Assembly: GCA_021404905.1 (NCBI GenBank)
Contig: QWHN01000001.1
Coordinates: 66,162 to 130,161 of the forward strand
From: Candidatus Saccharibacteria bacterium CPR2
GTDB taxonomy: Bacteria; Patescibacteriota; Saccharimonadia; Saccharimonadales; QWHN01
DNA length: 64,000 nt
Reading direction: 5' to 3'
Below the pieces are notes generated by a model. The model was not told where the DNA came from. It searched no databases and saw only the letters and a program-made list of their open reading frames with translations. Both the position numbers and the translations under genes were made by a program. Positions 6,381 to 56,043 of this stretch are shown in pieces. Within the stretch, counting starts at the first letter, position 1; each line of letters starts with the position of its first letter.

Positions 6381-6668
6381 TATTGAGTATCATTATTATG
6401 CTTATGCTACAAACTGTCAAACAAATGAAATACATATTATTGACTTAAGTATTGTAATTACCCCTGTAGGTTGATATTATTGAATTGATCGAAGAATGGA
6501 AGAGCCTCGAACTTGTTCTATCTTGTGATGTGGAGTGGAGCTCCGACGTTTCAGTCGGAGCAAGCAGTTGACTCCGATCGACAGTATCGGAATGGCAACT
6601 TCCACTGTCGCTTATCGGCTATAATGGACAAGAATGTGGTTACATAATCAAATTTGATCATTAATTAT

Positions 6669-6743
6669 TGCGGGGTGGAGCAGTGGCAGCTCGCGTGGCT
6701 CATAACCACGAGGTCGCAGGTTCGAGTCCTGCCCCCGCTACCA
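6669..6743 (+). tRNA. initiator-type tRNA-fMet (CAT), CCA encoded
   Basis: TGCGGGGTGGAGCAGTGGCAGCTCGCGTGGCTCATAACCACGAGGTCGCAGGTTCGAGTCCTGCCCCCGCTACCA. It shows a 1:72 mismatch, a GCGGGG-TGGAGCAG 5' end like bacterial initiators, and a CTCATAA anticodon loop. Confidence 0.9.
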
Positions 6744-6750
6744 AGATATG

Positions 6751-6776
6751 AAACCGACCATAGCGTCGGTTTTTTA
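6751..6776 (+). terminator. intrinsic terminator after tRNA-fMet
   Basis: ACCGAC-catagc-GTCGGT hairpin followed by TTTTT. Confidence 0.7.
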
Positions 6777-6780
6777 TCTT

Positions 6781-6919
6781 GATGGGGCAGAACTCCGGTT
6801 CTGCGACCGAGATTTTCTGAAAGAAAATATCGTAGTCGCAGGTTCGGTCATGACGAGCACGCACAGATGCTTGCATCGAGCATGCGAGGAAATGTGCTTT
6901 GTCTCTGCCCCCGCTACCA
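6781..6919 (+). pseudogene. tRNA-fMet-derived tRNA-like segment (degenerate second copy with ~54-nt insertion in the T-loop)
   Basis: It repeats GTCGCAGGTTCG (6835-6846 vs 6713-6724) and CTGCCCCCGCTACCA (6905-6919 vs 6729-6743). The 5' part, ttGATGGGGcaGAACtccgGTTC, mimics the acceptor and D arm. A long arm ends in the 7-nt loop CTGAAAG. Confidence 0.5.
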
Positions 6920-7179
6920 GGACGCATGATCATCTATACGGCTCCTTGCATTCCGCACCTCCGCCTTGCCAGAAATAAAATCAAGCACCCCGGTACGAAG
7001 GTAGACGAGAATTGCAAAGACTACCAAGGGGATCGCGTCATGTCATGCACAGATGTTATCGAGCATAAAATTGTATATATGCTTTTTTTCTGCTTGTTTT
7101 TCTAAGGCCTTGGCGGAATAAGCTGTTACTAAGCATAAGCTTATTGATTAAATTTGTTTTAGGCTGATAGTATATAAAT

Positions 7180-8193
7180 GTGAGTACTCTAAAAAAACAA
7201 CGCGGTTTTGCAATTGTTGAGTTAATAGTTGGACTTATTGTTATTGCTGCCATATCATTCGTTGGCTATACAGTTTATAAAAAAGTTACTAATAAAAAGG
7301 GCCAGGAAACTTCTACGAATCAAACCGCCCAAACTGATAATAATGAAAGTGAATTGAAGTTCGACAGCGATCCCGTCAGCTCCGACCCTATCGGCGATAA
7401 AATGGGCCCTTTCTATCACGATATTTACCTAACCACTGGGCAAGATGGGCTAACATTCAACGGCAAAGGCAAGAAATTAATCGAGCACGCATCCGTCCCA
7501 GACATTATTAGGCTCAAAGATGGCCGACTTGCAATTTATGCAGTAGATGCGGCAAAACGTAGTAAATCCGGCTTGTTAGTCGGAATATCAAAGAACGGTG
7601 GCGAAACATGGCAGTTTGGATCGGTTCGTTTTAACGCAACTCAAAATAAACCTGTTACTGGAGCTGATCCAGAGGTTGTTCTAACAGAAGATGGCAAAAT
7701 CCGATTGTATTTGCTAGTGCATGGCGGAGGGCCGGCACAAAACGGCATGCCGGCTTCAGGCGTCAAAAACAAAGTCCAAAGCGCTCTGAGTACTGATGGA
7801 ATCAACTTTACACCCGAAGACGGAGTGCGCGTAGAATACGCTGAAATTACTGACCCTGATGTAATAAAAATTGGCGACATTTGGTATGCCTATATCTCGC
7901 AAGGCCCTAAAAATATAGCATTTACTTCTGCTGATGGTTTGACTTTTAATGAGGCCAAGACAATTCGCGGCTCAGGCTCAGTCTCAAATACAGTTGATAT
8001 AGGTGACAATCAATTCAGGCAATATTACTGTGGGGGCTCAGCCATTAAGAGTGCCGTAACTACAGACGGCCTTAATTTTACTGACGATTCGGGTAACAGA
8101 CTTGAGCCGGATTCTGGTGAATATATTTGCGACCCTGCGCCCGTAAAAGTCGATTCCACATGGTTAATGGTTTACAAAGTCGGCCACAATTAA
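7180..8193 (+). CDS. type IV pilin-like signal (prepilin cleavage/methylation motif) fused to a BNR/Asp-box beta-propeller (sialidase/glycosidase-like) domain
   Basis: N-terminus KQRG|FAIVELIVGLIVIAAISFVGY has G-1, F+1 and E+5. Asp-box-like SKNGGETW, STDGINF and TTDGLNF follow. Start codon is GTG. Confidence 0.7.
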   Translation: MSTLKKQRGFAIVELIVGLIVIAAISFVGYTVYKKVTNKKGQETSTNQTAQTDNNESELKFDSDPVSSDPIGDKMGPFYHDIYLTTGQDGLTFNGKGKKLIEHASVPDIIRLKDGRLAIYAVDAAKRSKSGLLVGISKNGGETWQFGSVRFNATQNKPVTGADPEVVLTEDGKIRLYLLVHGGGPAQNGMPASGVKNKVQSALSTDGINFTPEDGVRVEYAEITDPDVIKIGDIWYAYISQGPKNIAFTSADGLTFNEAKTIRGSGSVSNTVDIGDNQFRQYYCGGSAIKSAVTTDGLNFTDDSGNRLEPDSGEYICDPAPVKVDSTWLMVYKVGHN

Positions 8194-9940: not shown

Positions 9941-10342
9941 CTATTCGTGCCCGAGTAAAAAATCTATCCATTGTCCGAAATTGCTCTTTTGTTCAGATGA
10001 ATTTTCTTCTTCATTATTCTGCTGTTCTGGTTTCGACTGGTTTTGAGCTTGATTGGGTAAGATCAAAACGTTTTCGCCTTTTGAAACTAGGTTGAATTTA
10101 CGCTTTGCCTCAAGTTCCAAAAACGCGTCAGTCTTATAGTATTCATTGCTAAGCTTCAGATTTTCATTTTCCAATTCCAGAAGCCTTACTTCCTCTTGAA
10201 GCCTACCGACTTCTTGTTGAAGCCCGTAGTTTTTTTGAACAACTTTGGCTGTATTCCAAACCAGGTATCCGGCAATCAGGGCTGACGTCAGCAAAACCAA
10301 GCTACGAGTGGAAAATAATGTTTTTAGCGGATTTTGTTTCAT
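9941..10342 (-). CDS. septum formation initiator family protein (FtsB/DivIC-like)
   Basis: N-terminal TM segment, then a coiled coil (LQQEVGRLQEEVRLLELENENLKLSNEYYKTDAFLELEAKRKFNLVSKGENVLIL), typical of FtsB/DivIC. Confidence 0.75.
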   Translation of the reverse strand: MKQNPLKTLFSTRSLVLLTSALIAGYLVWNTAKVVQKNYGLQQEVGRLQEEVRLLELENENLKLSNEYYKTDAFLELEAKRKFNLVSKGENVLILPNQAQNQSKPEQQNNEEENSSEQKSNFGQWIDFLLGHE

Positions 10343-10499
10343 GTTTGTTTTCCATCAGAGAAATACTCTGATTTTATTTTACACGCTAAAGAATTATTAG
10401 AAAAATACGAAATGAAAATTACTAACTAAAGATTATCAGATAAACAATAAAGCTGATGGGGATGGCAAGATTTTAACCTGCTATATAGGAATGCCCCCT

Positions 10500-10575
<76 letters not shown>

Positions 10576-10720
10576 ACCAAGGAAACACTACTTGTCCACC
10601 GAAGCTTTGGCGTAGGCGGAAGCTATATCCCCTGAGAAACATACGAATTATATTATCATTTATCAGATGAGAAGTATCAAGTGGTTTAGGATAAATTTCT
10701 CAAACACTAATTCCCATTTT

Positions 10721-11974
10721 CTACTTGCCAATTCCCTGCTCTCCAGACCCATCATTTCTCGCTATCCGAGCAATGGCTACTTCGTAAGCCGCGTCTTTAT
10801 AGGATATGCCCTGGGAACTTACGATATCGTGAATTTCATCTGTCGCATTAACGAGATATTTCTTCAGCTTTTTATAAACCTTTTGTTTACCCCAAATTTG
10901 GTTTTGCCTATTTTGCAACCACTCAAAGTAAGAGACAGTAACTCCTCCGGCATTGGCAATTATGTCCGGAACAACAACTACCTTATTTTTCGTTAGATAA
11001 TCGTGTGCTTTGTCCGATACTGGGTTATTAGCAAGTTCAACAATATACTTAGCCCTGCATTGTTTCATGTTTTTTTCTGTTATTGCGTCACTGAGCGCCG
11101 CAAGAATAAGTACATCGACATCAAGCGTGAGCAGTTCTTCGTTTGATACAAGTTTAGTATCTTGATTTTTCTTAGCAAAGTCTACTACTGATCTCCCTGC
11201 CAATTTCGCATCCATTACTTTTTTTGGGTCCAGGTTTTTCTCAGTAATTGAATAGACCCCACCAACAGAATCACTGACAGCTATAAGCTTGTATTTTTTA
11301 TTTGAGGCAATTAGCTCAGCAAAATGATAACCCACATTACCAAGACCCTGAATCGCTACGGTTTTTGGAAATTTTTCATTACGATTTTCTAAAATTCTCT
11401 CAAGAACATAATATCCACCCAGTCCCGTTGCTTCACTTCTCCCCCTGCTGCCTCCATTGTTTATCGATTTTCCCGTAAAAGCAGCTTTTGTTTGACTTTT
11501 AGTCGCCTTTTGATATTCATCAAGCATCCAATCCATAACTGATGAATCTGTATTTACATCTGGCGCTGGTATGTCTTTATCCTCACCAATATAAGGAGCA
11601 ATGAAACGCGCATAATTTCTAGAAAGCTCTTCCAAATCTTCTTTACTTAGAGTCCTAGGATCAACGGCTATTCCACCCTTTCCGCCCCCAAGAGGAAGGC
11701 CTATAGCTGCTGTTTTAAGTGTCATGAGCGTTGCCAGCGTAGCTACTTCAGATTTTGATACGCTGGGATGAAATCTAATGCCGCCCTTATGTGGCCCAAG
11801 GGAAGAATTATGTTGAATTCTATAAGCTTTAAAGCACTGTTTTGTTCTGTCCAAACATACTTCAAACTCAAATTCTGCCTTGTGTTCCAGTAAACTTTTT
11901 ACAGTTTTTTGAGGCAACCCCAATCTGCGACCAGTTTCAATAATTTTTCTTTTTAAGCCTTTATCCATAGACAA
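10721..11974 (-). CDS. gdhA: NAD(P)-dependent glutamate dehydrogenase (Glu/Leu/Phe/Val dehydrogenase family)
   Basis: GPHKGGIRFHP and LPLGGGKGG catalytic motifs, plus a GLGNVG dinucleotide fold. Confidence 0.9.
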   Translation of the reverse strand: MSMDKGLKRKIIETGRRLGLPQKTVKSLLEHKAEFEFEVCLDRTKQCFKAYRIQHNSSLGPHKGGIRFHPSVSKSEVATLATLMTLKTAAIGLPLGGGKGGIAVDPRTLSKEDLEELSRNYARFIAPYIGEDKDIPAPDVNTDSSVMDWMLDEYQKATKSQTKAAFTGKSINNGGSRGRSEATGLGGYYVLERILENRNEKFPKTVAIQGLGNVGYHFAELIASNKKYKLIAVSDSVGGVYSITEKNLDPKKVMDAKLAGRSVVDFAKKNQDTKLVSNEELLTLDVDVLILAALSDAITEKNMKQCRAKYIVELANNPVSDKAHDYLTKNKVVVVPDIIANAGGVTVSYFEWLQNRQNQIWGKQKVYKKLKKYLVNATDEIHDIVSSQGISYKDAAYEVAIARIARNDGSGEQGIGK

Positions 11975-46891: not shown

Positions 46892-49342
46892 TCAACCCCA
46901 TATATCCGCAATTCTATTTTGGGTCTTCTGCTCAAATTTGTGGATTAGTTTTCGATTTAAGTTCAGGATTGTCCGCTCTTCCAAAATCGACTTAATTATC
47001 TCCTTTTGCACCCCGACTGGTGGGAGGGGTATTTCTAATTCAGCGACTCTTTGTAAGCCTAGTTTTGGAACGCCCACTCCAGCAGTTAGTCTTCTAATTT
47101 GAGATTGAATAGTGGGTTCCTGTAGGACTATGGCGAGATAATCTTTGTCTATTGTATCGTTGCGGATAACTAGTTTTGCGGCATTTTCAGTTAAATAGGA
47201 TCCGTCCAGATCAGGCGGAACGACTCCCGTTTTTCCGATGGTCCCTGCTATTGATATGTATACATCATTTGAGCTAATGGTATATCTTTCAATTTCTTTA
47301 CGAACGTCATCGTCGATAAATTTAATGCTAGTTTTGTCAATACCGCCTTCGTTCATATCAACAACTCTAATGTATGGGTATTTGGTAGGTTCATCGGAAA
47401 ATGATTTACCTTTCGGAATTCGTTTTCCACCTTTAATATCTACTAACTCAGACAGTCTAATTACCTCCCACTCTGGGTTAATAGGTAAGCTCGGTGTCCA
47501 ATTATCAATTGCTTGCTGAGCACCTTCAATAACTTTTCTGTATGAACTAAGTTCGTCAGCTATCTCTTTTTGGATATCAATAGTAGGGAGAGGGATTTTG
47601 AAGGGTTTAAGATCTTCTGTTTTCATTGAGACATTGGCCGCGCCGCGCATTAATTTGGCAAGATCATCCTTCACAGATGATAAGATCCAGTAAAGATACC
47701 TGCCATCAAGATCGTCACCTGGTATTACAGCTGCCAACAAGTTTGCGAGTGCAAATTTTCCTTTGAAATAATGAACTCTTTTTATGCTTGCGTGGCCGTG
47801 GCCTGTTGCCGAAATGAGCGGAATACATACTGCTTCTGCATCAAAATCAAAATGTGTAGAAGTTTTAAACTCTTGGGCAGTTAGAATTAAGGGATAATCA
47901 CCTGCTTCTGTTTTTGTGCTCGAAGACTTGCCTTTTTCAATTCTTGCAACGTCACCCAAACTAATTAGGGGGTATTCAGAATCCAAGGGCGCTACGGACA
48001 AATACTTATTACCCACCAGGGAGATATCATCAGAAGTTAGAACTGAGTCTTTCGAGACCTTATGTGCTAGTTTGCACGTAATGTGATTATTAGGTTCTTG
48101 TTGAAATTCTTTTATCACCTTCAATGCATCAATGAGGTCATTTTCCTTAATTGGCTTTCTCACCGCTCCAAGTGAAACCCCTACTTGTTTTACTTCTGTA
48201 AATAGTATATCGGTGCTGCGTTTTGCGAGTTCCTTGTCTAGAAATATAATCGAGGTCTTTACTCCAGAGTATGGGAGAAATACTCCGGAAGGTAGTGAGA
48301 CGACCGCATAAAGATAATTCTCAACCAACATCTTCCTGAGTTGCTTATATGCGTTACCAGATTGGAAAATGATTCCCTCTGGTACGATCACACCCGCTCG
48401 ACCACTTGTAGATAAGTGCTCGGCAATATAATCAGTAAACAGGACCTCTGCACGATTTGCTTGAACACCAAAACGCTTATGGGGACGAATACCACCCTTT
48501 GGAGTCATAAACGGTGGATTTGCTAAGATAACATCGAAACTATCATCCCAGCGATCGTCGCTAGTTAAAGAGTCGTATTCATAAATATGCGGTTGTGGAA
48601 AGCCGTGCAAGTACATATTGACTCTTGATAGTTTTACCATATCAGGCGAGATGTCATAGCCAACAATACTATTAGCTAGTCGCTTTCGTTCGTCAGGGGT
48701 TAGCCTTGTTTCATCGTTGGGTTTACCACTTTCGTCCTTACCATCGTGAGAGTTAAGGATGTGCTTGTAAGCTGAAATTAAGAACCCTGCCGTACCACAC
48801 GCTGGGTCGAGTATTCGATCAGTCTTTTTTGGGTCAACTACTGAAACGATGAAATCAATGATGTGGCGTGGCGTACGGAACTGCCCAGCATCACCTTGAC
48901 TACCAAGTACGGATAACAGGTACTCAAATGAGTTGCCCAACTCTTCACTATGATGATAAGTAAATTCGTTGATTTGCTTTAGGAACAAACTTAGAGTCTC
49001 GGGGTCACGATAAGGCAGATATGCGTCCTTAAATATATCTCGGAATAATTGTGGTATGTGCGGATTTTGAGAGAGTTTTGAAACCGCTTCTACATAGAGA
49101 TCAAGGCGCTCCAAACCGCCAAGCTTTGGATCCATTAACTTTGACCAAGAATACTTTTCGTAACCGTTATTGAAGAACTGTGGCTTACCCCCAAGTTCAA
49201 TAGCTTCTTGATCCATATCGTCCATAAATTTGTAGATAAGGGCGTTAGTGATCTGATCAACCTGTGCCTTAGGGTCTGGAACTTTGCCTACAAGAATGTC
49301 TCTGGCGGAATCGATTTTTCGTTTAATATCAGTCGTCAGCAT
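46892..49342 (-). CDS. hsdM: Type I R-M fused methyltransferase-specificity subunit (HsdM N-terminal ~440 aa + two-TRD HsdS)
   Basis: LDPACGTAGFL (motif I) and ILANPPFMTPKGG (motif IV, N6-adenine). These are followed by TRD1 (ISLGDVARIEKGKS..), a central conserved helix (LPTIDIQKEIADELSSYRKVIEGAQQAIDNW), TRD2 (IRLSELVDIKGGKR..) and a distal helix (LPPVGVQKEIIKSILEE..). Confidence 0.85.
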   Translation of the reverse strand: MLTTDIKRKIDSARDILVGKVPDPKAQVDQITNALIYKFMDDMDQEAIELGGKPQFFNNGYEKYSWSKLMDPKLGGLERLDLYVEAVSKLSQNPHIPQLFRDIFKDAYLPYRDPETLSLFLKQINEFTYHHSEELGNSFEYLLSVLGSQGDAGQFRTPRHIIDFIVSVVDPKKTDRILDPACGTAGFLISAYKHILNSHDGKDESGKPNDETRLTPDERKRLANSIVGYDISPDMVKLSRVNMYLHGFPQPHIYEYDSLTSDDRWDDSFDVILANPPFMTPKGGIRPHKRFGVQANRAEVLFTDYIAEHLSTSGRAGVIVPEGIIFQSGNAYKQLRKMLVENYLYAVVSLPSGVFLPYSGVKTSIIFLDKELAKRSTDILFTEVKQVGVSLGAVRKPIKENDLIDALKVIKEFQQEPNNHITCKLAHKVSKDSVLTSDDISLVGNKYLSVAPLDSEYPLISLGDVARIEKGKSSSTKTEAGDYPLILTAQEFKTSTHFDFDAEAVCIPLISATGHGHASIKRVHYFKGKFALANLLAAVIPGDDLDGRYLYWILSSVKDDLAKLMRGAANVSMKTEDLKPFKIPLPTIDIQKEIADELSSYRKVIEGAQQAIDNWTPSLPINPEWEVIRLSELVDIKGGKRIPKGKSFSDEPTKYPYIRVVDMNEGGIDKTSIKFIDDDVRKEIERYTISSNDVYISIAGTIGKTGVVPPDLDGSYLTENAAKLVIRNDTIDKDYLAIVLQEPTIQSQIRRLTAGVGVPKLGLQRVAELEIPLPPVGVQKEIIKSILEERTILNLNRKLIHKFEQKTQNRIADIWG

Positions 49343-54441: not shown

Positions 54442-56043
54442 ATGAAATATTTTGTTTACATAAGAAAATCAACCGAAGACGAAGAAAAACAAGTTCTCTC
54501 GCTTGAAACACAGATGGATAAAGCTAAGGAAATGTTTGGTCACCTTGACCTAATATTTCTTGAGCCAGAGTCGGCAAGTGCCTTTAAACCGTACAATCGC
54601 CCTATCTTTGCAGATATGATCAAGCGAATTGAGAATGGTGAAGCACAAGGCATTATTGCCTGGCACCCTGACCGTGTTTCTCGTAATGAGATTGACGCTG
54701 CACAGGTGACATATATGATCCGTACTGGCAAAATACAGGATTTGAAGTTTGGTTCATACAATTTTGATAACTCACCAGAGGGCATAATGATGCTCCAAAT
54801 GGTTATGTCTCAGTCCCAATACTTCTCAGCAAAGTTGAGTAAAGACGTAAAGCGTGGACTTGAGAAAAAGATCAAAATGGGCTGGAAGCCAGGAGTTGTT
54901 AAGGCTGGTTATCTCAATAACCCTGGTATGGAAAAAGGATCTCGGATTGTCAGCGAAGATCCGGTGAGGTATCGCCAAGTTAGGAAAATGTGGGATTTGC
55001 TTCTAACGGGTGCTTACACAGTTCCCCAAATTCAGGATATAGCTAACAATGAATGGGGATTTCGCTCAGTAAAACGAAAGAAAATTGGCGGTGGTCCGAT
55101 AGCTCGCAGTACACTTTACGCGTTGTTTACCGATCCCTTCTACGCAGGTCAATTATTCCATAAAGGTGAATATTATAAGGGTAGTCACAAGGCGATGATT
55201 ACGCTCGATGAGTTTGATCGAGCCCAGATGATCTTGGGTAGAAAAGGTAAACCTCGTCCACAGAAACACCGCTTTGCGTTTACTGGATTTATTCGTTGTG
55301 GCGATTGTGGTTGTTCAATTACTGCAGAGCCCAAACTCAAAGTCCTTAAGAGTACTGGTGAGACTAAGAAATATGTTTACTATCACTGCACTTGGAAGCG
55401 ACCTTGCAATCAACGCAAGGTTATAACTGAGGCAGAGCTAGAAAAACAGATTGAAGCCGAACTATCCAAGATCACTATAATCCCTGAATTTAAGGATTGG
55501 GCACTCGATGTTCTGAATAGCTCAAGCGACGAAGAGATTGAAAATAGGACTATTCTTCACAAGCAGCAAACCAGCACAATGTTAGCCATCCAAAAGCAAC
55601 TTGATAACTTGATCCAGATGTATACTCGGGAGCTTATTGACGATCAAGAATATACCAAGCAGCGTAGCGAACTGCAAGGGCAGAAAGTCAAGATCCAGGA
55701 AAAGCTGCGTAAAACAGAAGATCGTGCTGACGAATGGCTAGAACTGGCCGAAAAAGTATTCGACTTTGCAGTCCACGCACGACATAACTTTGTACACGGT
55801 GATCTAAACGCTAAAAAGGAGATATTTGTAGCACTAGGAAACAACCCAATACTAATGGACGGTCAGCTTACGATTGAGTTAAATGAATGGTTCAAACCAA
55901 TAGCTGAAAATAGTGAAAAACTAGCTACTGATTTTGAGCTGGTCAGAACCGACAAAAAAGACCCCCAAAACGGAGGTCAGTTTTTGCAATCCAATCAGGA
56001 TTTATTTTCTTGGCTCCGGAAAATGATGGCGTCGGATTCGTGA
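54442..56043 (+). CDS. large serine recombinase (integrase)
   Basis: YIRKSTEDEEKQVLSLETQ catalytic-Ser resolvase domain, a recombinase domain, a CGDCGCSITAE..YYHCTW zinc ribbon and a long coiled coil. AAGGAG SD. Confidence 0.9.
   Translation: MKYFVYIRKSTEDEEKQVLSLETQMDKAKEMFGHLDLIFLEPESASAFKPYNRPIFADMIKRIENGEAQGIIAWHPDRVSRNEIDAAQVTYMIRTGKIQDLKFGSYNFDNSPEGIMMLQMVMSQSQYFSAKLSKDVKRGLEKKIKMGWKPGVVKAGYLNNPGMEKGSRIVSEDPVRYRQVRKMWDLLLTGAYTVPQIQDIANNEWGFRSVKRKKIGGGPIARSTLYALFTDPFYAGQLFHKGEYYKGSHKAMITLDEFDRAQMILGRKGKPRPQKHRFAFTGFIRCGDCGCSITAEPKLKVLKSTGETKKYVYYHCTWKRPCNQRKVITEAELEKQIEAELSKITIIPEFKDWALDVLNSSSDEEIENRTILHKQQTSTMLAIQKQLDNLIQMYTRELIDDQEYTKQRSELQGQKVKIQEKLRKTEDRADEWLELAEKVFDFAVHARHNFVHGDLNAKKEIFVALGNNPILMDGQLTIELNEWFKPIAENSEKLATDFELVRTDKKDPQNGGQFLQSNQDLFSWLRKMMASDS

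Follow-up and report, generated by a model that had tools for sequence, protein, structure and literature searches.

The initiator tRNA gene of Candidatus Saccharibacteria bacterium CPR2 is followed, on the same strand, by a compact non-coding block in which pieces of the tRNA recur in a new structural arrangement. We analyzed this block (positions 6781-6919, + strand) within a 64,000-nucleotide stretch of contig QWHN01000001.1, hereafter the window, together with loci from relatives, which are denoted by L numbers. The block is conserved among diverged Saccharibacteria, in a fixed position and orientation with respect to tRNA-fMet; its helices are maintained through compensatory substitutions, its tRNA-like parts vary together with the cognate tRNA, and insertions abut its CCA end. 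It belongs to a family of conserved, structured “shadows” of tRNA-fMet in Saccharibacteria, and from these comparative sequence data, it appears somewhat likely that it specifies a small RNA, predicted to be structured, on the tRNA strand. We infer, further, that the block would be transcribed and would act as an RNA, with a conformational switch and a cellular role.

Repeats of the initiator tRNA and anatomy of the block

The source of the copied segments is an intact tRNA-Met(CAT) gene (6669-6743, + strand), detected by ARAGORN and by Rfam (RF00005, 63.6 bits), which the A11:U24 pair and the 1x72 mismatch, read from the sequence, mark as the initiator. It is followed by a terminator-like hairpin (inverted repeat at 6742-6781, + strand; called at 6750-6773 in the terminator scan), whose stem takes in the CCAAG of the tRNA 3' end and which is followed by a T-run. 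An equivalent hairpin is present in every member of the family described below.

The 3' end of tRNA-fMet and the 5' half of its T-stem recur 122-176 nt downstream. A repeat search identified CTGCCCCCGCTACCA[A/G]GA at 6729-6746 and 6905-6922 (18 nt, 94% identity, with 15 nt exact) and the exact 12-nt repeat GTCGCAGGTTCG at 6713-6724 and 6835-6846. In first-order Markov simulations of the region 6400-7400 (n = 1000), an exact repeat of at least 15 nt appeared in 0.1% of the cases, and one of at least 12 nt in 4.7%, so the repeats of the tRNA 3' end listed in the initial annotation, which was made from the window sequence alone, are real and above chance. The two tRNA-derived pieces are colinear, and the tRNA-like sequence breaks after the TTCG of the T-loop, as had been noticed; the distance between them, however, is 58 nt (6847-6904) rather than ~54 nt. 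Parts of this insert are themselves repeated downstream in the same order (CA[C/T]GCACAGATG at 6858 and 7044; ATCGAGCAT at 6875 and 7058), which places the previously reported recurrence at 7044-7066. The complementarity of GGGGCAG (6784-6790) to CTGCCCC (6905-6911) was likewise confirmed, as were the three copies of CTACCARG on the + strand (6738, 6914 and 7021), that is, 3 copies in 290 nt compared with ~2 expected in the entire 64-kb window on both strands. Two further occurrences of CTACCAAG, at 48900 and 51285, are probably due to chance; these lie in reading-frame-like sequence (frames unchecked), far from any tRNA. In addition, positions 6784-6795 represent a 92% inverted copy of positions 6724-6735 of the tRNA.

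The description of this region as a GC-richer non-coding block with only short, overlapping open reading frames (ORFs) holds: the GC fraction is 0.48-0.52 in the block compared with 0.29-0.35 in the flanks, and the ORFs lack coding support because a Pfam search of the block ORFs yielded no match and no gene is called in the block in public assemblies of the same strain. Public contigs of this strain are identical and hence add no variation, and exact-protein look-ups with the two flanking genes returned only identical copies from the same strain. Most of the public short-read assemblies of the strain (contig ends L002-L012) break within the tRNA-fMet 3' end, at ~6710-6740, as would be expected if the segment is repeated in the genome, in the community, or in both.

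The + strand of 6781-6922 folds with a free energy of -60.8 kcal/mol (z = -4.55). The block and the sequence downstream of it consist of the following elements:

6781-6799, + strand: variable 5' leader (~20 nt in the family), which repeats the T-arm and acceptor 3' strand of the tRNA in inverted, degenerate form
6784-6791 with 6904-6911, + strand: helix P1, GGGGCAGA with TCTGCCCC, from the minimum free energy (MFE) fold; weakly supported
6800-6842, + strand: hairpin H1 (fold; covariation in the apical stem)
6800-6807 with 6835-6842, + strand: base helix of H1, TCTGCGAC with GTCGCAGG (fold)
6808-6832, + strand: apical stem-loop of H1, with one purine-purine mismatch
6833-6834, + strand: TA bulge of H1
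6843-6846, + strand: TTCG, the first four bases of the T-loop, where the tRNA-like sequence breaks; TTCG in 8 of 12 aligned copies
6857-6885, + strand: hairpin P2, at the T-loop position; all pairs show compensatory changes
6886-6904, + strand: variable linker; a third small hairpin, P3, is common here in relatives (alignments, folds)
6905-6919, + strand: 3' tail CTGCCCCCGCTACCA, identical to the tRNA from the 3' strand of the T-stem through the acceptor 3' strand and the discriminator base to CCA
6920-7043, + strand: non-coding stretch with the third CTACCAAG (7021-7028) and no match to covariance model R1 (see below)
7044-7066, + strand: shortened second P2 core, ATGC-ACA-GAT-GTT-ATC-GA-GCAT (repeats and motif search)
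7061-7090, + strand: weak terminator-like hairpin, GCATAAA...TATATGC followed by T7 (MFE fold), which closes the non-coding block

The 3' arm of H1 copies the variable loop and the T-stem 5' strand of the tRNA, and the 5' arm is its complement, that is, an inverted copy. Together with the inverted copy at 6784-6795, this makes the whole block an imperfect palindrome of the 3' third of the tRNA, with P2 branching off at the T-loop. The previously noticed 9-bp arm with the 7-nt loop CTGAAAG is not an anticodon arm but the tip of the much longer hairpin H1, and GAAC-TCCG-GTTC forms an alternative mini-hairpin within the leader. From the base upward, P2 consists of a lower GCA/TGC stem, a CxA mismatch, GC:GC pairs, an internal loop (ACA/GA), a GATG/CATC stem and a CTTG loop. 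A K-turn reading of the internal loop was rejected because it would break the covarying 4-bp stem, and P1 was rejected as the closing helix of the family given that its register shifts between members.

Downstream of the block, the stretch 6920-7043 is probably decayed remnant DNA, and 7044-7066 is probably the remnant of a second tandem unit. The second P2 core does not fold stably (z = -0.23), and the hairpin at 7061-7090 was not called in the terminator scan, having too few G-C pairs. We considered 6920-7040 as a degenerate copy of X, the island border element described below, and rejected this because the similarity was not above that of shuffled sequences. With no such relationship, no match to R1 and an unfolded second P2 core, the region fits debris, and 6920-7070 most plausibly represents what is left of a further, decayed unit, similar to the decayed second units in L028 and L021.

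A conserved family that follows the neighboring tRNA

The closest relative that could be reached through a neighboring gene, L013 (Pyr_redox protein, 88% identical), contains tRNA-fMet, the terminator hairpin, the same long hairpin, a different insert of ~86 nt, CCTGCCCCCGCTACCA and a strong terminator, in this order, with the surrounding genes rearranged. A scan of one genome per species identified L019, in which the DEAD helicase is only 59% identical to that of the window and H1 is identical in 52 of 53 positions (98%); beyond H1 and the tRNA, nothing aligns between the two loci, flanks included. A scan of metagenomes with a pattern anchored on the two tRNA-derived pieces, which required TAGTCGCAGG and CTGCCCCCGCTAC, added 8 member loci (L021, L022, L024-L029) and a tRNA-like outlier, L031; two other matches, L023 and L030, were attributed to chance. 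With covariance model R1, built from 12 copies, a second copy in tandem was detected in each of L021 and L028, along with diverged copies at other loci that matched less well. Among the loci found through the recombinase that is discussed in the next section, 7 of 8 (L019, L032, L033, L035, L036, L038 and L039) hold H1-like or block-like modules after the last X; in the fetched L037 locus, no block or block-like module was found in this position. Two pattern scans of viral contigs produced a single chance match, inside a topoisomerase-like coding region (L020), and a BLAST search of the block against phage and plasmid collections yielded no match; L031 matched a phage tRNA-Met over its tRNA part only.

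The position of the block is constant, on the strand of the tRNA and after the tRNA terminator. In most relatives, the 3' tail leads into an intrinsic terminator; in L026, L019 and L013, this terminator is on the strand of the block, including cases in which the downstream gene has the same orientation. A 3'-end direct repeat like the 15-nt one of the window is also present in L013, L022, L026 and L028, at distances of 162-186 nt. The apical stem-loop of H1 differs between lineages but retains its pairing and the single purine-purine mismatch. Across the family, the lower stem of P2 varies and is topped by a mismatch, mostly CxA, and then by two G-C pairs; above these, RCA on the 5' strand faces GA on the 3' strand in a conserved internal loop, and a 4-bp stem with a small loop forms the tip. 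The P2 core motif was matched 13 times in 252 kb of sequence searched, compared with 0.1 matches expected per 64 kb. In L029, a group I intron (342-567, - strand; Rfam, 107.6 bits) interrupts the tRNA just upstream of the block; by its 3' end, this tRNA is not tRNA-fMet, and the block still carries an fMet-type tail.

Covariation across diverged homologues, as expected of a structured non-coding RNA, is evident. In a MAFFT alignment of 12 copies, 86.4% of the cells pair, compared with 30-48% when the 3' partners are slid; 14 pairs are double-changed, and the covariation score is 0.439 compared with 0.159 in shuffled alignments, none of the 500 shuffles reaching the observed value. In the alignment produced with the model, which is fitted to the structure, 92% of the cells pair and 18 pairs are double-changed. 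RNAalifold recovered P2 independently. The base helix of H1 can also be followed directly in the sequences of copies that were found by routes other than the metagenome pattern, where its two strands are TCACGACC/GGTCGTGA in the second type of block in L013 (see below), GGACCTC/GAGGTCC in L033, CCTGCGAC/GTCGCAGG in L039, and TCTGCGGC/GTCGCGGG in L036, complementary in every case, in L036 via G-U wobbles that are possible only on the + strand. In L032, the T-stem halves of the block have changed jointly to GGAGG and CCTCC, which suggests that an alternative, T-stem-like pairing around P2 can matter as well.

The tRNA-like parts of the module match the tRNA next to it. The block tails follow the T-stem variant of their own tRNA-fMet (CCTGG in L033, CCTAC in L035), and L013 contains a second block type (6420-6600, - strand) after its other tRNA-Met(CAT) gene (6619-6695, - strand). 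This second module has its own terminator hairpin, H1 arms that match its tRNA-Met, a canonical P2 core (GC-ACA-G...C-GA-GC-A) and a tail, ATTCTCGCCCCTGGTACCA, that is identical to the 3' end of the upstream tRNA-Met. Thus, the constant part is P2 along with the overall architecture, and the tRNA-like parts are those of the neighboring tRNA. We also rejected the idea that P2 duplicates the cognate T-arm in nested form, given that the second module of L013 keeps the P2 core even though the tRNA differs.

Two other places in the window show isolated similarities of this kind. Upstream of tRNA-fMet, positions 6480-6650 are non-coding and GC-richer; within them, 13 nt (6529-6541) nearly repeat the 5' end of the tRNA, and a hairpin similar to the tip of H1 in the second block of L013 spans 6539-6570. 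About 25 nt after the other tRNA-Met gene (574-650, - strand), the 18-nt direct repeat CATAAGCCCAAGGCCGCA (532-549, - strand) copies the sequence from the anticodon loop to the T-stem, with no H1 or P2 present.

The initial annotation had treated the block as a tRNA-like pseudo-copy. Searches with tRNA, tmRNA and Infernal-type models lend this no support: ARAGORN and Rfam 15 (E ≤ 10) detected only the true tRNA at 6669-6743 in the window region, and nothing indicative of a tRNA gene or pseudogene in the block, and ARAGORN and Rfam at the gathering score matched none of the blocks in relatives. Indeed, the block is tRNA-like only in the T-stem 5' strand and the 3' tail. In the same searches (Rfam at E ≤ 10 for the window and at the gathering score for relatives), there was no ARAGORN tmRNA, no match to any other tRNA-like RNA (YrlA, TLS, mascRNA) and no match of the block to the group I intron family RF00028; nothing relevant on tRNA-like RNAs or T-loop introns in Saccharibacteria was found in the literature.

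It is very improbable that the block is a real or recently dead tRNA gene with an intron-like insertion in the T-loop, which would be removed from the RNA to give a tRNA or a tRNA half. In favor of such a gene is L031 (12767-12915, - strand; R1, 33.9 bits), on a contig that is not Saccharibacteria-like, where a tRNA-Met(CAT)-like gene with an acceptor stem and an anticodon arm carries a P2-like insertion of ~70 nt at the same T-loop position. The leader of L022, moreover, retains GCGGCGGTAGGG, which resembles a tRNA 5' end, and that of the window can form a mismatched, acceptor-like stem of 7 bp. However, most members lack the acceptor 5' strand, the D-arm and the anticodon (the tips of H1 being CTTG, GAA, GTA and others), the block is accepted by neither ARAGORN nor Rfam, L031 has an abnormal D-loop of 3 nt, and no T-loop splicing system is known from bacteria. 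Archaeal T-loop introns and split tRNA genes resemble the block in that an insertion occupies a fixed T-loop position of a tRNA-like sequence, but the block is bacterial and most of its copies lack the tRNA 5' half.

Recombinase islands, element X and the attachment of insertions

That tRNA-fMet serves as an integration site, as the initial annotation supposed, is correct. In L019, tRNA-fMet and the block are separated by a 4.3-kb segment that encodes a large serine recombinase of 530 aa (Resolvase, Recombinase and Zn-ribbon domains) and an NYN-domain protein. Relatives of this recombinase, 56-80% identical, number in the hundreds, and in all 9 loci examined, the frame of the island recombinase ends antisense inside tRNA-fMet (in L019, the stop was read in the anticodon loop), so that the last ~13 residues of the enzyme are encoded by the tRNA gene. 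The far end of each of these islands is marked by a second conserved tRNA-like sequence of ~105 nt, which we denote element X. A palindromic T-arm-like hairpin and GGGCTACCA form its end, with the terminal sequence GTTCCAATTCGAATGnACnnGGGCTACCA, and a terminator hairpin comes next; the last bases of X vary in step with the variant of the host tRNA. Element X is not recognized by ARAGORN or Rfam and is absent from the window.

L019 2925-4517, - strand, and L032-L039 ~10001-11590, + strand: large serine recombinase, ~525-530 aa
Window 54442-56043, + strand: large serine recombinase (Resolvase, Recombinase, Zn-ribbon), no adjoining tRNA
L019 7226-7330, + strand: X
L032 4741-4845, L033 2115-2219, L035 5967-6071 and L036 5682-5785, all - strand: X
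L021 186-290, L024 1291-1395 and L025 1839-1943, all - strand: X
L027 3478-3582 and 680-759, both - strand: X, two copies
L037 and L038: X, several copies

The only large serine recombinase detected in the window lies 48 kb from the block and shows a weak similarity (23% identity) to the recombinases of the tRNA-fMet islands. In the loci that we read, we noticed no tyrosine recombinase adjoining the block, with no systematic search made, and a literature search for serine recombinases in Saccharibacteria returned nothing relevant.

Insertions occur not only at the tRNA but also at the block. The junction sequence TAAGCAYTTTGACCTCTG follows the tRNA CCA in L025 and the block CCA in L021; in L027, a 2.5-kb segment bounded by the second X follows the block CCA; and in L037 and L038, several X-bounded segments are arranged in a row. 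Because these insertions abut the block CCA, the 3' end of the block behaves as a second copy of the attachment sequence.

With islands so common at tRNA-fMet, the block could be neutral debris, namely, functionless 3' fragments of the tRNA displaced by serial integration and excision, a possibility that we regard as improbable for the core. It fits with the repeated tRNA 3' end, the islands in all 9 loci, the X-bounded rows in L037, L038 and L027, and the abundance of degenerate copies (6920-7070 in the window, the second copies L028b and L021b, and the 18-nt fragment after the other tRNA-Met of the window). The direct repeat downstream of an intact tRNA that is expected of an attachment (att) scar is indeed there (15 nt exact, 6729-6743 and 6905-6919). 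The DNA between the repeats, however, does not behave as neutral sequence: 52 of 53 positions of H1 are identical between genomes at 59% protein identity, pairing is kept through double substitutions in 14-18 pairs, and the same P2 core is found in a module built from another tRNA. Very recent horizontal copying as a source of this similarity is disfavored by the diverged P2 stems and leaders. The initial annotation had favored scars of serial integration and excision over a structured RNA, and had named the same block with compensatory changes in relatives, along with abundant transcription, as what would argue against a scar. Such blocks were found, and for the core 6781-6919, the structured RNA is now the better supported of the two options, to judge from the comparative data. 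Decayed extra copies (7044-7066, L028b, L021b) do exist.

Direct repeats of tRNA 3' ends reportedly form the attL and attR borders of integrated islands, with the crossover in the T-loop as one sublocation, as Reiter in 1989 and Williams in 2002 are said to have described. As in these islands, an intact tRNA is followed here by a partial copy of its 3' end that starts around the variable loop or T-arm, and recombinase islands occupy the same tRNA in relatives. Unlike such islands, the ~160 nt between the repeats contain no genes, and no recombinase, cargo or remains of island DNA, but only the terminator hairpin, the leader, H1 and P2; a conserved hairpin interrupts the copy at the T-loop; the direct copy pairs with an inverted one to form a hairpin; the stems covary; and where a recombinase island is present, the block is located outside it. 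Studies of the Streptococcus elements ICESt1 and ICESt3 reportedly described CIMEs and the site-specific accretion of integrative elements at the 3' ends of tRNA and other genes. Gene-less units with att-like repeats that offer further sites and pile up in tandem are shared with the block, given the insertions at CCA and the X-bounded rows, but CIMEs derive from larger elements by deletion and have no conserved secondary structure.

A DNA-level role, the main alternative, deserves more weight. The unit that runs from just behind one CCA to the next CCA, with the terminator, the leader, H1, P2 and the copy of the tRNA 3' end, could be an attachment-site module, that is, a miniature non-autonomous integrative cassette or an arm of one, the hairpins of which act in single-stranded or cruciform DNA; we consider this possible but rather unlikely. 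In such a module, H1 and P1 would rebuild a duplex copy of the T-arm for the recombinase, in the manner of the forked-hairpin attP of the CTX phage, which rebuilds the dif site, and of the integron attC site, which is recombined as folded single-stranded DNA. The block shares with these sites imperfect hairpin arms that rebuild a target-like duplex, bulged bases, a variable tip and a structure that is kept more than the sequence; it differs from them in that no Xer or integron integrase is associated with it, the recombinase at the locus being of the large serine type. Several observations are compatible with such a function: direct repeats of 15-24 nt of the tRNA 3' end, 160-190 nt apart, are a classic att signature; H1, and in the window also P1, is built from direct and inverted copies of the target tRNA sequence; the tRNA-like parts change with the variant of the cognate tRNA; the units are tandem in L028 and L021, those of L021 sharing 104 nt exactly from GCTACCA to GTCGCAG; the same junction sequence follows the tRNA CCA and the block CCA, and an X-bounded segment follows the block in L027; and the locus is a recombinase hot spot. 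Nevertheless, no recombinase adjoins the block in the window, L013, L022, L026 or L028, and in loci with an island, X and a terminator separate the island from the block, which is therefore not the arm of that island. Large serine recombinases use short duplex DNA sites, with no known requirement for hairpins, which does not fit the recombinases of this locus with a folded site. The RCA/GA loop, the CxA mismatch and the G-U wobbles that form only on the + strand are more typical of RNA, and the terminators bracket the unit on one strand.

A still more speculative idea, to which we attach only a slim chance, is that P2 with its tRNA-matched flanks represents a new kind of target-matched module, in which direct and inverted copies of the 3' third of a tRNA surround a constant structured core. 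The same core may have been re-fitted to tRNA-fMet, to the second tRNA-Met and to the tRNA-like gene of L031. In one version, the RNA or the folded DNA may use the matched segments to mark tRNA 3' ends as attachment sites or to create such sites there, and would be a guide or adaptor that carries homology for the integration of islands; in another version, P2 may be a T-loop-specific insertion element of bacteria.

A candidate RNA at the initiator tRNA

The small RNA interpretation is favored over these alternatives because of the co-orientation of the block with the tRNA, its bracketing by terminators, the conserved non-Watson-Crick features and the presence of the CCA end in most copies. Most likely, the module would be transcribed by read-through from tRNA-fMet or from a promoter that is not recognized by the search. 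The transcript would then act as a small tRNA-derived RNA, the tRNA-like parts of which are kept matched to the neighboring tRNA, and GCAGG would have two potential partners, the H1 5' arm and the CCTGC of the 3' end; with CCTGC, it would form a T-stem-like helix around P2. As DNA, the 3' end of the block could also provide a second landing site for islands that target tRNA-fMet. These RNA and DNA roles are not mutually exclusive: the module may have originated by duplication of the tRNA 3' end during integration and subsequently been kept as an RNA.

Several observations weigh against an RNA function. The P1 closing helix is not conserved across relatives. Part of the invariance of H1 and the tail is due to ascertainment, and hence is no evidence, because the metagenome scan itself required two of these sequences. 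The counts of G-U and A-C combinations (19 vs 15) do not discriminate clearly between the strands. A promoter search between the tRNA terminator and the block yielded no sigma-70-like site in the window, L013, L019 or L026, and neither Rfam nor the literature provided a known RNA family or protein partner to which a function could be anchored. Some copies are decaying: L028b and L021b lack the CCA, L036 lacks the tail, L039 lacks P2, and the second P2 of the window is unfolded, which suggests birth-and-death dynamics similar to those of mobile or duplicated DNA. Finally, the two blocks of L021 share an identical left part of 104 nt (from GCTACCA through H1 to GTCGCAG) and differ in their P2 domains, a pattern that suggests that units of the array have recombined and were not simply inherited vertically.

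Among known tRNA-related RNAs, YrlA, the tRNA-like domain of tmRNA and 3'ETS-leuZ are similarly derived from re-used T-arm, acceptor and CCA parts or from a tRNA trailer, and the block, too, is located downstream of a tRNA on the same strand. The differences are that the block has no Rfam match, no intact T-loop and, in most copies, no acceptor stem, that a separate hairpin replaces the T-loop, and that we noted no rsr/rtcB or smpB genes next to the block in the loci read. The block is not categorically new: its ingredients, tRNA-derived RNAs and attachment repeats at tRNA ends, have precedents.

Saccharibacteria are episymbionts with reduced genomes, and to our knowledge, few of their non-coding RNAs have been described. 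The block represents a conserved structured element that derives from, and adjoins, the initiator tRNA and that falls outside the Rfam families, the ARAGORN models and the searchable papers. It demonstrates how the 3' third of a tRNA can be rebuilt into a new hairpin architecture that still matches the parent tRNA, and its analysis maps an integration hot spot at tRNA-fMet, with a widespread family of recombinase islands and the border element X. Under either interpretation, covariance model R1 and the P2 core motif supply testable sequences. If the block acts as DNA, it would be an unusual structured attachment module; if it functions as an RNA, it would be a candidate regulator or decoy linked to the biology of the initiator tRNA.

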